From a bacterium (GTDB lineage Bacteria; Bacteroidota; Ignavibacteria; UBA10030), in assembly GCA_043803945.1 (NCBI GenBank), contig JAZDJN010000087.1:128001-192000 (forward strand): a stretch of 64,000 nt of DNA, written 5' to 3'. This document shows, piece by piece, positions 18,437 through 43,967 of the stretch. A program made the translations under genes and the position numbers. Under the pieces are notes generated by a model that worked only from the letters and a program-made list of their open reading frames with translations, was not told the DNA's origin and did no database searches. Position 1 is the first letter of the stretch. The number at the start of each line of letters is the position of its first letter.

Positions 18437-18667
18437 ATGAAAAACAAACTCATCGATACCGTTCTTGTCCTTGTCTACATTACTGCCCTCTTCTCTATAG
18501 GTTTTTCTTTTTCGAGTTGTGTCTCTTCCGAACTTGCTCTCCAAATGGAAACCTCGGTCAACTGTCCGTTAATGAAGAATCTTCAGGACAACGACGAAGA
18601 TCTCTTTCAAATTGAAGACGGCATTGGCGCCGTTGGGGAGGCCTCAGCCTGCCCCACGTGAGGGTAG
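18437..18667 (+). CDS. Small DUF4266-like lipoprotein, predicted selenoprotein ending C-P-T-U-G (76 aa, Sec75)
   Basis: Lipobox FSSC; TGC CCC ACG TGA GGG TAG at 18650-18667; SECIS-like hairpin starting 11 nt after the TGA; lies upstream of a DUF3570-like barrel and a TlpA. Confidence 0.75.
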
Positions 18668-18671
18668 GTCC

Positions 18672-18691
18672 TATGTTTCAGGTGAAACATA
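18672..18691 (+). promoter_or_regulatory. SECIS-like hairpin for TGA 18659
   Basis: Perfect 8-bp stem TATGTTTC-AGGT-GAAACATA, loop at +19; the stem contains the likely ATG (18673) of the next gene. Confidence 0.75.
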
Positions 18692-19707
18692 CGAATACTA
18701 TCTCTCGAGTTCGCATCCTCTTCGGAGTGCTGGTTGCGGCTATACTGTTCTCTCCCTCACCTGTTACTGCGCAAGGATATGACGATGCTTTCGAAATGAG
18801 AAGCAAGCTCAAGGTAGAGGTACAATATGCCGACTATGGGGAGTACGAATACCCTGAGCCAATCCTTTACCAGTATGGTCTCTCACCCTATCAACAACGT
18901 TATCCTTACATCGTCAATTTTCCTGAGCGGCGGGGACTCATCAAATTCAGCAGATTGGTGAGTAGTGAGACGGTTCTTGGATTCAAATATCAATTCTCCG
19001 ATCTCCGTGAAGATGTCAAGCAGCATCTCTTCGAAACAAAACTGACGAAAACACTGGATATCGGAATTATCGGTATAGCTGCGGCACAGCTTCTTCGTGA
19101 TTCCCGGGGATTTTCTGCGGTTCAATACGGAACAGGAATAAGCTGGGAGCCAAACGCAATCACATTGTTCCAGGGAGACATCCAGTATTATTATCGAGGA
19201 GATGCTGCTAGTAGTGTGGGCGGAAGATTAGGAACTGCCAATGCACGTTTGAAGTTCAGACAAGTCTTAACGCTTTCAACCGCCCTGCAAGCCGAGTATA
19301 GTTTCTATAACGCAGCGGGCAACTCGTTGAAGTTCAACTCGCAGAGCCTGGCACTGTGGCTCAGCCAATTTTTCAAGACACAAACAGCTATTCATGTCAA
19401 TGGCCGGTTCTATACAAACACGATGGGCATTCAATCCTTCTCCCCCTCTCTGGAAATTGCTCAATATATCGACTGGGCGACCGTTCTCTGGCTGAAGTTC
19501 CGGTACTATACAAACGAGAGCAGGAATGTCTCCTTCGGTGAGCAGGGTGTCTATATCCCCAACGGTTTAAGATCGACCTCGGTGAGCGCGCAGGTAAATC
19601 ATGAACTAACTCCCTCTCTGCTGGTTTACGGGAAATATCGGTACTACAAGAGTAACCTAAACATCCAGATGAATACCTATCTCACTGGATTGGTCTATTC
19701 CTTTTAG
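18673..19707 (+). CDS. DUF3570-like outer-membrane beta-barrel
   Basis: Signal peptide; C-terminal Phe (LVYSF); RFYTNTMGIQSFSPSLE...FRYYTNES resembles the recalled DUF3570 pattern RYYxDxWGIxSHT...YRYYxQ. Confidence 0.65.
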   Translation: MFQVKHTNTISRVRILFGVLVAAILFSPSPVTAQGYDDAFEMRSKLKVEVQYADYGEYEYPEPILYQYGLSPYQQRYPYIVNFPERRGLIKFSRLVSSETVLGFKYQFSDLREDVKQHLFETKLTKTLDIGIIGIAAAQLLRDSRGFSAVQYGTGISWEPNAITLFQGDIQYYYRGDAASSVGGRLGTANARLKFRQVLTLSTALQAEYSFYNAAGNSLKFNSQSLALWLSQFFKTQTAIHVNGRFYTNTMGIQSFSPSLEIAQYIDWATVLWLKFRYYTNESRNVSFGEQGVYIPNGLRSTSVSAQVNHELTPSLLVYGKYRYYKSNLNIQMNTYLTGLVYSF

Positions 19708-19836
19708 ACCACTGATTATCGCTGATTAACACTGATTATCACTGAGAAAAGTAAGTAGGTTGAGATCTTGTTCGAAGAAATAGCAAATAGAATCTTTGTC
19801 TGCGTTCGGGGCTGACTAAAAAGAGAACTCGCGGAC

Positions 19837-40732: not shown

Positions 40733-40967
40733 AATTTACATTAGCCTTGTGGTACGGTTGGACCGTGCCACCGTACACAAGAGTGTTTATCCACTTCCAT
40801 ATAAATCAACAAAAACAGGCTTCTGACTCTCCGGATTCGCAATTAGTGGCTTGCGCTTCATTCAGCTATTTTGTTTCTTTACTACTACTGCATCCTTCAC
40901 CGAGCATCTTATGAGGGCAAATCCTCATGAGATGACTCCATCTCTCAAACTGTAAGAGGTTATCCTT

Positions 40968-42464
40968 ATGAAAGCTAAAAAACTTTTGATGACGGCATAT
41001 CTTCAACTTGGCTATACGGTCCTTTGCGCCGGCCTTGCTTTCGGGTCCTACAGACTAAGCCGGTACCTGATGAAATGTGCCGGTGGTGGCTGAGGGGCTT
41101 CCCAATTTGGGGGTCTCCCAAACTTCTTTTCAGTATTGTTCACCATTCTTGCCGTTTATTTTGTCCTAGCCGCGATACGTTCTGTATTGCTCTCCATGGC
41201 GGAGGAGAACAAACTTCCTCCTGTCATGCGAACCATCCTCCTGAGCGAGTACAGCCTCATCATTAGTAAATTTCTCGATTGGTTCCGTTTGAAGCGCCGG
41301 CATCTCGTAGTTCGTTTCCTGCTGTGGGGCGTCGGAATACTTTTTCTGGCTCAATTGCTGGCGTCGCTTGTCAGTAATTCGGGGAAGGCTGAGATCATTC
41401 CGAATTACGTTCCATGGGAAGATCCACCGTTAGTCCGTTCTCGGGTGGTAACACTTCCTCTCATGGCATCGAATTCTCCGGAAACATATTTGCCTCATTG
41501 CATTACGCTTGTGGATCAGCTCAAAGCTGCCGGAGCAAAACTTGTGGTTGTCGATTACAGAGGCATTCATCCGGATGTCAACGGTCCAGTATTTGACTAT
41601 ACAAAGCGGCTCATGGAAACCGGTATCGTCATTTTTGCAGTGGAACCTCAATGGCGCGGACTCGAATCGAATTTCCCGTTGGCTGAATTTTCAATCGATG
41701 CCGATGTCGCACGCTATGGCCGCATCCATAGATTTACACCGACCGGTGCCGGGAACCATGGAGATGTTCTCATCGAACTCCTTCGGCGAGCGCATCAATA
41801 TCCCGACAGTATGCGGGTGACCATCAAGAAAGAATTCTTCGCCTTCGGCGACTATGCTTTCCCCTGTGATTCTGAAGGCTCGTTTTATATGGATCTGAAT
41901 AATCTGCGGATTACCTCCGATGCAGAGTTGAATCCGGTTCGGGTCATTGAGAAGCCTACCACCCATGAATTGGACTATTATAGCAGTGGCAATTGGTACA
42001 CACCCGATACCACACGATCACCGCTTCTCAACAAGTATGCAAAACGATATAAAGATAAATTTGTACTGTTGCTGAACGAAAACTTCCCCGAACGGCCATA
42101 CCCATATTTTCTCAGTAGCTGCTATCCGCTCGCGTTTGCATCTCTGCAACAGGGGATGCAACCATTTGTGCAATCGAAGTGGCTGCATTATGGGTTTGCT
42201 ATACTCTTCATGCTTCTGATCGGTGTGGTGTGTTACCGGTTGCGACTGAGCTTCGCCATTCCGTTTGTGCTGATACTCACCCTCGGATCATTCTATGCAA
42301 TCGACTGGCTGCTCTACCGCCAGCACATCTTTGTCCAGATGCTGCCATTAACGTTTTCCATCGTCTTAACAACGATAGTGTTTCCTTTGCTCAAGTTTGC
42401 GTTCGATCATTCTGTACAAAAACAGGCCAGCACAAATACAAATGTCGATTCAATAACACAATAA
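40968..42464 (+). CDS. CHASE2-like membrane selenoprotein without output domain (498 aa, Sec42)
   Basis: GAGG RBS, ATG 40968, MKAKKLL...RYLMKCAGGG-TGA(41091)-GASQFGGLP in frame with ORF 41136..42464; LVDQLKAAGAKLVVVDY, KDKFVLL and 3 C-terminal TMs resemble CHASE2. Confidence 0.8.
41106..41122 (+). promoter_or_regulatory. SECIS-like hairpin for TGA 41091
   Basis: TTTGGG-GGTCT-CCCAAA, loop at +19. Confidence 0.75.
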
Positions 42465-42482
42465 TACTCCAAGAAGGTGCGT

Positions 42483-43967
42483 ATGAAAATCGATCACTAT
42501 GTGAAGTCAGCCTATATCCAGTTTGGGTTCTTTCTCGCAAGCGGCGGTATGGCCTACGGCACACACAAACTTGGCCGCTATCTCATGCAGTGCTCCGGCG
42601 GCGGCTGAGGATCTTCCTACTATGGGAGTCTCCCATTCAGCCTCAGAACGTTCTTTATCATTCTCACGGTCTATTTCTTCTTTGCGGCAATTCGTTCACT
42701 ACTCCTTTCACTTGCACGTGCCGGGAAACTGCCTCAATGGATGGAACTGATTCTCATCAGTGAATACAGAATCATTCTTACGAATTTTCTCAACTGGTGC
42801 AGGCGGCAGCAGCGAAAACTCTGGGTCCAGTATGTATGCTGGAGTGTGGTCATCGTAGTCTTTGCTGTGAGTATTGCAACGACTGTCAGGAACAGGAAAG
42901 TCGGCCGGTATGAACATACCGAAAGCATCGCTCTCTGGCCTGACCAACCCATCATGAACCCCTCCCTGATGAGTATCGATGTTTATGACTGCACCAATGA
43001 TGAGGCATATCTCGCTAACTGTCTCGACATGGTCGAGCAATTAAAGCAGGCGGGTACAAAAGCCGTTGTGGTCGATTGCAGATATATTTACCCGTTGGCC
43101 AGTCCCCGCATTACCGAGTATTACCGATCACTCCATGAAACCGGCGTGGTGATTTTTGGCGTAGACGGAGACTGGAGGCCAATTGATACCAATTTCACCG
43201 CTGTTGAAGTTACCGCCAATTTCGACTTGACCCGCTATGGACGAATCCACCGCTTTCTCGCAAGCGGGTATGGCGGATACCCCGACCTCCTCTTTGAGTT
43301 GCTCAGAAGACATCAGGGATATTCAAAGAATGTTTCGTTTACCGTGAAAAAGGGAATTGCTCAGCTTGGCAACTATACGATTCCTCTTGATAAAGATGAT
43401 TCATTCTCCATGGATATTGACTCCAGAAGAATCGTGGCGTATGAAAAGGTGAGTCCTGTGTATGCCATCATGAGCATAAAAACGGGTAAGCTGGAATATC
43501 ACGGATGGAATTCCTACAACGTTCCCGATCCGAAGGAAAAGCCTCTCCTTGAAACATTTGGCAAACGGTTCAAGGATAAATATGTCATGATCACGAATCA
43601 AAGTAGGTATAACTATAGTATCAACAGTAGTGAGTATGGAAAAATTTATCCTGTTGCATTTGAGAACCTGTTGGCGCACGACACCTTTTTGCCGAAACCG
43701 TGGCTAGAGTACGTCGCTATGGGTCTCTTCCTGTTGCTCTGCGCCACCGCGTGCACATGGCTGCGGTTCAGTTATGCTGTACCCTTAGTTCTTGTTCTCT
43801 ATGGTGGATCGGCATATGTGGTTGACTATCTGCAATTTTTCCAGCACTGGTATTTTCCCGGTGCAGCGTTCAACAATGCGGCAATCGCCTCTTCAATTCT
43901 TTTTCCATTATTACGCTTTCTTGCCGATCACAGGAACAACGAGGAACATCATCCGACGCCCCACTAA
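42483..43967 (+). CDS. CHASE2-like membrane selenoprotein, tandem paralog (494 aa, Sec42)
   Basis: ATG 42483, MKIDHY...RYLMQCSGGG-TGA(42606)-GSSYYGSLP in frame with ORF 42741..43967. Confidence 0.8.
42622..42636 (+). promoter_or_regulatory. SECIS-like hairpin for TGA 42606
   Basis: ATGGG-AGTCT-CCCAT, loop at +19; possible lower stem GGCTGAG/TTCAGCC. Confidence 0.75.

Follow-up and report, generated by a model that had tools for sequence, protein, structure and literature searches.

Eight in-frame TGA codons beside selenocysteine genes in an Ignavibacteria genome: probable selenoproteins of the cell envelope, with three apparently undescribed families

Why should eight genes lying within 25.5 kb of each other, on one strand, each be interrupted by a single in-frame TGA? 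The window analyzed here (G000:C87:128001-192000) is a stretch of 64,000 nucleotides from contig JAZDJN010000087.1, called C87, of the genome under study, G000, which belongs to the Ignavibacteria order UBA10030 and is rated 100% complete. Between positions 18437 and 43967 of this window, translation with table 11 gives open reading frames (ORFs) in same-frame pairs with one TGA between the partners, and when the TGA is read as selenocysteine (Sec, U) every pair fuses to one frame with exactly one odd codon. Our results suggest that all eight TGAs are, in all probability, Sec codons, directed by downstream hairpins and located in a "Sec island" that would have been inherited with the sel genes. 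This reading is based on the Sec machinery beside the window, on the conservation of the TGA in orthologues with 29-66% protein identity and on the covariation of the hairpins.

The TGAs are at 18659, 20493, 22121, 27209, 29121, 33188, 41091 and 42606, and on translation they fall in the motifs CPTUG, EHT-U-LEC, KSK-U-REC, FYTC-x23-U within EGGGUGNSG (three genes) and C[AS]GGGUG (two genes), as the first-pass annotation of this DNA had stated. It had also credited every product with a signal peptide, a lipobox or transmembrane segments; in accordance with this, a Kyte-Doolittle scan, which is not a signal-peptide predictor, found an N-terminal hydrophobic segment in 8 of 8, which supports the conclusion that all eight products are extracytoplasmic or membrane proteins. 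The outer-membrane barrel that it counted as part of the selenoprotein system is, on the other hand, a separate gene (18673-19707) that contains no TGA. The features discussed below, all on the forward strand, are the following (SECIS, selenocysteine insertion sequence; T9SS, type IX secretion system).

1548..1644, +, tRNA-Sec with anticodon UCA (ARAGORN)
18437..18667, +, small lipoprotein of 76 aa ending in C-P-T-U-G-stop; TGA 18659-18661, TAG 18665-18667
18673..18690, +, SECIS-like hairpin with a 7-bp stem and loop AGGU, overlapping the start codon of the next gene
18673..19707, +, probable outer-membrane beta-barrel of 344 aa with a signal peptide, ending in YSF, no TGA
20052..20825, +, trx1, TlpA/ResA-like thioredoxin-fold selenoprotein (probable) with EHT-U-LEC; TGA 20493; earliest possible start TTG 19935
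20508..20526, +, SECIS-like hairpin of trx1, stem 7, loop AGUUG
20852..23161, +, propeller 1, tandem BNR/Asp-box propeller with a T9SS C-terminal sorting domain and FYTC-x23-U; TGA 22121
22150..22166, +, conserved hairpin 2 of propeller 1, loop GGC, about +37 from the UGA
27008..27514, +, trx2, TlpA/ResA-like thioredoxin-fold selenoprotein (probable) with KSK-U-REC; TGA 27209
27222..27238, +, SECIS-like hairpin of trx2, stem 7, loop GUU
27816..29852, +, propeller 2, tandem; TGA 29121
29150..29166, +, conserved hairpin 2 of propeller 2
29859..31769, +, SEPS protein with a C-terminal TlpA-like domain, no TGA; likely start Met at about 30135
31841..33898, +, propeller 3, tandem; TGA 33188
33217..33233, +, conserved hairpin 2 of propeller 3
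40968..42464, +, polytopic membrane selenoprotein 1 (probable), CAGGGUG in the loop between helices 1 and 2; TGA 41091
41106..41122, +, SECIS-like hairpin of membrane protein 1, loop GGUCU, G/U at +23/+24
42483..43967, +, polytopic membrane selenoprotein 2 (probable), CSGGGUG; TGA 42606; alternative start GTG 42477
42621..42637, +, SECIS-like hairpin of membrane protein 2, loop GUC, G/U at +23/+24

The means to insert Sec are present next to these genes. ARAGORN reported one tRNA only, a tRNA-SeC with anticodon tca at 1548-1644, where the first-pass annotation had placed it, and the genes selA, selB and selD that it proposed to look for are all on the contig of the window, 6-12 kb upstream of the window start (C87:128001) and above their curated cut-offs: selA at C87:116333-117694 (593.6 bits), selB at C87:117744-119609 (377 bits) and selD at C87:121270-122193 (324.4 bits). 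The selD gene itself has one in-frame TGA, that is, it encodes the selenoprotein form of SelD. The genetic code is not reassigned, since long ORFs are free of TGA (for example the 1,499-aa ORF at 13767-18266) and since, of 2,893 frames with 250 codons or more, TGA closes 1,002 (35%), TAA 1,282 and TAG 609. Formate dehydrogenase alpha subunit (FdhA) does not seem to be the reason why G000 keeps the Sec trait: no protein of the genome exceeded the family cut-off, the best score being 70.1 against 814.2 bits.

The three propellers match the Pfam families Sortilin-Vps10, BNR and PSII_BNR (Ycf48-type). With the model NF045728 (F510_1955 family glycosylhydrolase, cut-off 175 bits), propellers 2 and 3 scored 179 and 207.3 bits and propeller 1 scored 135.4 bits, each value being the total over 5-7 repeat stretches of a profile with 246 positions. 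A T9SS sorting domain was detected in propeller 1 alone (TIGR04183, 33.4 against 23 bits; PF18962, 35.1 against 27 bits), and propellers 2 and 3 have none. The AlphaFold2 model of propeller 2 (pLDDT 87.4, pTM 0.86) has a GH74-like tandem seven-bladed propeller fold; its nearest solved folds in a Foldseek search are GH74 xyloglucanases (TM-score 0.61-0.65, identity 15-19%, E ~1e-27). In this model, the Cys is found just before strand 414-420 and the Sec in the turn between strands 428-433 and 439-444, a strand order from which Cys and Sec would share one face of a single blade in the second propeller.

A protein search with the propeller gave 7,100 BNR propellers at E<=1e-10 among 8,000 scored, and six of the eight database homologues examined (412-474 aa) end at ...xGG, one residue short of the Sec site. 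The scan of 185,579 genomes, one per species, was blind to the TGA, as it used a peptide pattern located 23 residues upstream of the site (Wx[RQ]LP[DV]FY[RT]C). Eight stretches matched and four were confirmed, one from a metagenome-assembled genome labelled uncultured Bacteroidetes and three from such genomes labelled Aminicenantes; the site was TGA in 4/4, with the frame open for hundreds of codons beyond. When the C-terminal half of propeller 2 was searched against the 277 genomes of the order, 15 matches were obtained at E<=1e-25 in 9 genomes, and all 13 that cover the site in selA-positive genomes have one TGA there. The match in G535 starts downstream of the Sec site. These whole-order searches corrected the impression of a singleton left by the 60 nearest relatives, in which no propeller orthologue was found at E<=1e-20.

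In the homologue of G519 both residues are gone, FYTC being replaced by FLTA and GGGUG by DNGGA; this genome has no selA and belongs to the same genus as three selA-positive genomes. Because Cys and Sec were lost together, G519 suggests that the two may function as a pair. In an alignment of 18 rows (A5) the Cys and GG-U-G are common to all 7 rows with TGA, and the Sec column of the 11 rows without it contains no Cys (Ser in one row, Thr in another, Trp in two and gaps in the others). The Cys...GG-U-G element is an insertion that has no counterpart in generic propeller homologues. Two further observations were made on propeller genes: the G519 homologue (contig C15, locus L072, ORF 1203-4610) carries a long added C-terminal extension with a T9SS-type tail, and at L044:4937-5600 the 5' part of a propeller gene is out of frame with the remainder, which is either a frameshift or an assembly indel.

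The two polytopic membrane proteins are 39% identical to each other, the 41 residues ahead of the TGA included, and each has 4-5 transmembrane-like segments (Kyte-Doolittle). The model of the membrane protein (pLDDT 81.5) consists of two N-terminal helices joined by a low-confidence loop that carries the Sec (residues 38-46), an amphipathic helix, a third transmembrane helix, an alpha/beta domain of about 250 aa and three C-terminal helices; a fold search gave no match in the Protein Data Bank at E<=0.001. Seventy proteins came out at E<=0.001 when 1.84 billion representatives were searched exhaustively with a profile. The close matches begin just past the Sec site, like the called fragment of the window itself, and the distant members (about 490 aa) have no Cys/Sec loop at all. 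A word-based homologue search returned the window's own fragment alone, and no orthologue of the Sec-bearing N-terminus was present in the 60 nearest relatives. Homologues with 31-35% identity were found on three metagenome contigs, all with YLECEGGG-U-G, and the TGA is also kept in G522 (31% identity) and in an N-terminal fragment of G523. Thus, every N-terminus of the family that was seen contains the TGA and none has Cys for Sec; L042, L043 and the G523 fragment are near-identical around the site, and 5 of the 6 rows are distinct. Neither protein matched a Pfam family at E<=0.01, CHASE2 (PF05226) included, and membrane protein 1 gave no CHASE2 match even at E<=1. CHASE2 was touched by 3 of 20 members of the wider family (best E 3.8e-4), so the label "CHASE2-like" is a weak one. 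A distant paralogue of the family is encoded elsewhere in G000 (C85:26694-27884).

The thioredoxin-fold genes are of a more familiar type. trx1 and trx2 match AhpC-TSA (PF00578; 65.1 and 71.5 bits, cut-off 26) and Redoxin (PF08534; 40.6 and 51.4 bits, cut-off 26.6), with U-LEC and U-REC at the CxxC position (HT-U-LEC in trx1, SK-U-REC in trx2). The best NCBIfam matches of the TlpA-like proteins are the CxxC families ResA, DsbE and StoA, and trx2 stays below the selenoprotein models WAxxUGC_long (NF041054, 29.5 against 300 bits) and TUGYCR (NF053656, 26.7 against 100 bits). Orthologues of trx1 in G254 and G522 have EHT-U-[LM]DC, and trx2-like genes have KSK-U-[KR]EC in G254 and in two copies of G522; the TGA is retained in all trx orthologues examined, and four trx2-type copies were counted in G522 and G254 together. 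The protein at 29859-31769 has SEPS at the position of the TlpA CxxC and is probably a redox-dead thioredoxin fold. It sits between two propeller genes, and its orthologue is at the same place in L044, a locus of genome G522. On a separate contig of G000, C91:25103-26422 (L065) encodes a thioredoxin_7/DsbH-like protein with tetratricopeptide repeats (TPR) and SPT-U-G[FG]C, whose orthologue at L044:798-2318 is directly upstream of a trx2/propeller cassette; its best NCBIfam matches, the C-terminal domains of TsoB and DsbD, are far under their cut-offs.

The lipoprotein is a different case. At 18659 the TGA is followed by one codon (GGG) and then by TAG. Frame continuity is uninformative with a single codon left, and the case for Sec in the lipoprotein rests on comparison alone. 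Thirty database homologues were found, and the 18 examined all end in ...[AT]CPT. The gene is present in 8 of the 277 genomes of the order; all eight matches, 58-66% identical, read through the TGA to Gly, and the DNA after CPT is TGA GGG TAG in 8/8. A class-level search (401 genomes) added one further genome. No homologue ending in CPTCG was seen, and no NCBIfam or Pfam family matched at E<=0.01, UXX-star, KCU-star and SaoC included. A Sec at the C-terminus is known from thioredoxin reductase (GCUG), and such a position implies that the SECIS lies outside the reading frame. Sec in the lipoprotein is the least certain of the eight and is still likely. The barrel gene always comes right after the lipoprotein gene. 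The barrel had no match in Pfam or NCBIfam; in the Atlas its structure has a TM-score of 0.76 to a DUF3570 cluster and its feature scores reach 0.94 to Slam/BBP2 clusters, which are leads only.

With regard to the hairpins, the SECIS of E. coli fdhF has GGUC in its apical loop (G23/U24, numbered from the U of UGA), and this was the model for a strict filter: a stem of 5 bp or more in which no more than a single G-U pair was allowed, a GU-containing loop of 3-6 nt, and the G at +20 to +25. The filter was passed by 5/8 sites, in comparison with 2,616 of the 225,990 TGA trinucleotides of the genome (1.16%). The loop G and U of the passing sites are at +21 to +25 (at +24/+25 in the lipoprotein), and all three propeller sites of the window fail. 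The hairpin that the first-pass annotation had noticed after each TGA is therefore present everywhere, but it is not of one type, and that of the propellers is further downstream. In the order, propeller genes have two hairpins. Hairpin 1 (+15 to +27), tried as the SECIS, was set aside as uninformative either way, its four pairs being invariant and its loop lacking a conserved G; hairpin 2 (+30 to +46) has the loop GGC or CGGGU. The propeller genes of the Aminicenantes have an 8-bp stem with loop GGUC at the fdhF-like position. Covariation was evaluated in sets of 5-8 related sequences each and is supporting evidence only. Three pairs are changed on both sides in the lipoprotein hairpin (8 sequences, 83.9% of cells paired), two in propeller hairpin 2 (95%) and two in the membrane-protein hairpin (96.7%), whereas sliding the 3' partner by 1-3 columns as a control left 17-77% of cells paired.

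The distribution of these genes follows that of the Sec machinery. Nine of the order's 277 genomes have a selA above the cut-off; they belong to 2 of 9 families and include 3 of 10 genomes of one genus. The lipoprotein was found in 8 of the 9 selA-positive and in 0 of the 268 selA-negative genomes, and TGA-bearing propellers are confined to the same eight; the ninth, G518, is 95% complete and in 380 contigs. The gene order lipoprotein-barrel-trx1-propeller-trx2 is identical in G000, G522 and G254, the distance from selA to the cassette is about 10 kb in G254 and about 6 kb in G565, and in G522 (L044) a second cassette is found about 1.2 kb upstream of selA-selB. This second cassette, composed of the thioredoxin_7/TPR protein (SPT-U-GGC), trx2, the redox-dead TlpA protein and a propeller, is the counterpart of 27008-33898 in the window. 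selA is present in all three Aminicenantes genomes, in one of which the propeller is flanked by three redoxin genes. The next gene after the propeller in two of the Aminicenantes genomes is a small OmpW/OMP_b-brl barrel gene (L045:7479-8093 and L047:7487-8041), an echo of the barrel of the window.

Under the reading that all eight TGAs encode Sec, the tRNA-Sec of the window together with the upstream selA, selB and selD would decode the UGAs, and the hairpin 3' of each UGA would direct insertion. The genes might then form two modules. Module A would comprise the CxxU-G-stop lipoprotein, the outer-membrane barrel, a TlpA-like UxxC protein, the GH74-like propeller (Cys-x23-Sec) and a second TlpA-like UxxC protein; its TlpA-propeller part is triplicated in G000. 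Module B would be the tandem polytopic pair, in which the short, flexible loop that joins helices 1 and 2 carries C-x-GGG-U-G. The Cys...Sec, C-x4-U and CxxU pairs could be selenylsulfide redox centres outside the cytoplasm, kept reduced by the adjoining UxxC TlpA-like proteins; the latter are proposed as reductants because their adjacency is conserved in two phyla. Selenium would be obligatory, since no Cys version exists. For this redox relay as a whole we see slightly less than an even chance. The barrel may export the lipoprotein. That the Sec trait was kept, and moved between genomes, for a selenium chemistry at the cell surface, in which the propeller Cys-Sec centre acts on an extracellular substrate, TlpA-like proteins recharge it and the barrel-exported lipoprotein serves as a selenol shuttle, with three new families involved, seems doubtful as a complete scenario. 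A unified network and any redox function are hypotheses.

Several points weigh against this interpretation and are considered together here. Of the features by which selenoproteins are generally recognized, the Sec machinery, a conserved TGA and a SECIS-like stem-loop shortly 3' of the UGA are all found; homologues with Cys for Sec are found for neither the propeller, the membrane protein nor the lipoprotein, so that the usual Sec/Cys comparison fails for these three. The first-pass annotation had looked to homologues for either Cys or a conserved TGA, and the second was observed at each site. The propeller hairpin of this lineage fails the strict filter, its loop being atypically distant from the UGA (about +37). 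The relatives, 6 genera in 2 families and 3 Aminicenantes, are few and akin, the covariation counts are small, and independent sequences of the membrane protein are likewise few, those that could be placed coming from the family to which the window belongs. That Cys and Sec are close together in the propeller is deduced only from the strand topology of a model, and the relay function purely from motifs and neighbourhood. For the lipoprotein, one sequence of eight (G562) has no hairpin, the hairpin contains the ATG of the next gene, and the invariant GGGTAGG after the TGA may be a ribosome-binding site, with the hairpin serving translational coupling. It is nevertheless very improbable that the TGAs are real stops in pseudogenes or split genes, or are read as Trp, Gly or Cys through a changed code or near-cognate read-through. 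Gene callers do split these genes and leave fragments in the databases, as the first-pass annotation had expected, and this would fit such an explanation, as would the lack of Cys homologues; up to 13 propeller copies, however, have this codon at an identical site, it is kept in two phyla, and both flanks are conserved, the TGA is inside a blade of a confident propeller model, the hairpins covary, the genes are found only alongside selA, and long ORFs have no internal TGA while 35% of them end in one. A narrower alternative, that seven TGAs encode Sec and the lipoprotein simply stops at its TGA (...ACPT-stop), with the hairpin and GGGTAGG serving translation of the barrel, is quite unlikely in our view. 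It would account for the single codon between TGA and TAG, the barrel ATG within the stem, the frequent use of TGA as a stop (35% of long frames), the lack of a CPTCG homologue and the hairpin-less G562. It would leave unexplained why eight of eight genomes have TGA, and none TAA or TAG, at 58-66% identity, why C-P-T-U forms a CxxU motif and why the loop G/U is at +24/+25 as elsewhere. The restriction of the gene to 8/9 selA-positive and 0/268 selA-negative genomes also speaks against a plain stop, although co-transfer with the island would fit too, and the C-terminal Sec families UXX-star, KCU-star and SaoC in Table 1 of PMC13188914, a table consulted in part, offer precedents.

The same balance has to be found for the relation between the two modules. 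In the first-pass annotation, all eight products, the inner-membrane pair included, formed one envelope-spanning selenium redox network. The part of this proposal that holds is the five-gene cassette, syntenic in three genomes; the membrane pair is unlinked elsewhere, and module B is tied to module A by co-location in G000 only. Location of all the genes on one strand beside the Sec machinery, a GGGUG motif common to membrane proteins and propellers, and the presence of both kinds in G522 and G523 are what one network would predict. In G522 and G523, however, the membrane genes are on contigs other than that of the cassette, and no copy was found in G254, whose cassette is complete, or in the three Aminicenantes genomes with the propeller. 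On the metagenome contigs their neighbours are unrelated (sulfatases, aminotransferases, a glycosyltransferase), with no conserved partner, and the small ORFs upstream of the pair in the window have no counterpart there; in the window itself, about 6 kb of unrelated genes separate the pair from module A. We thus consider a single network unlikely, and a role of the membrane proteins in the redox relay equally so.

Some other features of the window and of the genome were noted. Between the two modules, 34809-38942 encodes two metallo-beta-lactamase-fold hydrolases, a class-A beta-lactamase-like gene (PF13354) and, on the minus strand, an extracytoplasmic function sigma factor with a zf-HC2 anti-sigma factor. 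Upstream, 2395-18266 is rich in secreted propellers. Besides a TPR protein and a Reg_prop/Y_Y_Y histidine kinase accompanied by a LuxR-type response regulator, this region encodes a PQQ-like propeller protein and two proteins that end in a T9SS tail, namely a BNR propeller free of TGA (6633-8840) and an FG-GAP/TIG protein of 1,499 aa. On another contig, C85:23845-24867 (L064) encodes a secreted protein of 341 aa with DxDGD repeats and one in-frame TGA in IEGG-U-CIGF, followed by an 8-bp hairpin with loop GGU; coding scores are high on both sides of the TGA, and the gene is about 2 kb from the C85 paralogue of the membrane-protein family. It has no family match and no NCBIfam model. Its repeats may be FG-GAP/VCBS-like, and it may be a further undescribed selenoprotein of propeller type. 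Genome-wide, codon-usage log-odds gave 292 TGA-spanning candidate frames and the combination of hairpin and open frame gave 87; both lists consist mostly of adjacent same-frame genes and antisense frames, and no count of the selenoproteome was taken from them. C52:4004, tried as an additional Sec gene, was rejected as it has no start codon ahead of the TGA.

Our results have to be compared with what is known of bacterial selenoproteins. A 2026 review (PMC13188914) lists 119 selenoprotein families and subfamilies in its Table 1, UxxC TlpA-like kinds included. In the portion of this table that was available, no entry refers to a propeller, BNR, VPS10 or GH74 and none is for a membrane protein of comparable type, and the supplements of the review may list such genes; its available text makes no use of the terms BNR, sortilin, propeller, photosystem, "membrane protein" or periplasm. 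Likewise, the accessible parts of PMC12013277 (deep-Sep) do not mention BNR, sortilin, propeller or photosystem, and those of PMC13326102 (BSepDB) do not mention BNR, VPS10, sortilin, propeller or Ycf48, with the content of that database possibly listing such genes. PMC4807772, in the part available, treats selenoproteins and GH74 as separate topics. The literature searched contained no link of the propeller fold, CHASE2 or type IX secretion with selenoproteins, and nothing relevant on selenocysteine in Ignavibacteria. NCBIfam 20.0 has no model for the Sec form of the propeller, the membrane protein or the lipoprotein. The first-pass annotation, which did not recognize the propellers and "CHASE2-like" proteins as described selenoprotein families, is borne out to that extent.

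These three families might have been overlooked for a simple reason. Searches for Sec/Cys pairs underlie most selenoprotein catalogues, according to the available part of PMC12013277, and the three families escape such searches because none has a Cys counterpart. If the reading of a cell-surface selenium chemistry is true, the standard search would be blind to them by design, and the selenoproteomes of uncultured phyla may be undercounted through this bias. The families occur in folds without a selenium link in the sources checked: a tandem Asp-box propeller (one of them T9SS cargo), a polytopic membrane protein and, with a CxxU-G tail, a lipoprotein whose mature form has about 50 residues. 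Moreover, the lack of an FdhA over cut-off, together with a cassette that accompanies selA in 8/9 genomes, provides a testable answer to the question of why the Sec machinery was kept. Since gene callers split these genes, annotation pipelines could be corrected.

As to individual known systems, the resemblance is partial in each case. The likeness to the E. coli fdhF SECIS is in the five window sites with loop G/U at +21 to +25 and in the 8-bp stem with GGUC of the Aminicenantes; the propeller hairpins of this lineage differ by a loop near +37, and SelB binding is putative. The propellers share a tandem propeller fold with GH74 xyloglucanases and with BNR/Asp-box proteins (Sortilin-VPS10, Ycf48-like), at a TM-score of 0.61-0.65; they differ from GH74 by an identity of 15-19% and by the inserted Cys...GG-U-G element, the likeness being one of fold. 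Like CHASE2 proteins (PF05226), the membrane proteins have a helix, an alpha/beta domain of about 250 aa and three C-terminal helices, and 3/20 members of the wider family give weak matches; unlike them, they are probable membrane selenoproteins with two extra N-terminal helices bearing the Sec loop, without a cytoplasmic output domain and without a solved neighbour. UXX-star families 1 and 2, KCU-star and SaoC (Cys-Cys-COOH) resemble the lipoprotein in having Sec 1-3 residues from the C-terminus next to Cys (PMC13188914, available part of Table 1), whereas the protein of the window is a lipoprotein with CxxU-G-stop, a hairpin over the next start codon and no family match. Precedents for Sec in the cell envelope are found in the same part of that review, namely the GSU2204/MtrB-PioB barrel (NF041027) and the TonB-dependent receptor of the FCYXU type (NF049945); their folds and motifs are different, and the barrel of the window is itself Sec-free. 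The closest relation is with the TlpA/ResA-like UxxC oxidoreductase selenoproteins, which trx1 and trx2 resemble by their AhpC-TSA and Redoxin matches, their UxxC and their signal peptide; they differ in scoring under the selenoprotein-specific NCBIfam cut-offs and in being fixed neighbours of a propeller selenoprotein. Thus, the UxxC TlpA-like proteins of this locus are of a known selenoprotein kind, and the propeller, the membrane protein and the lipoprotein are apparently three undescribed families.

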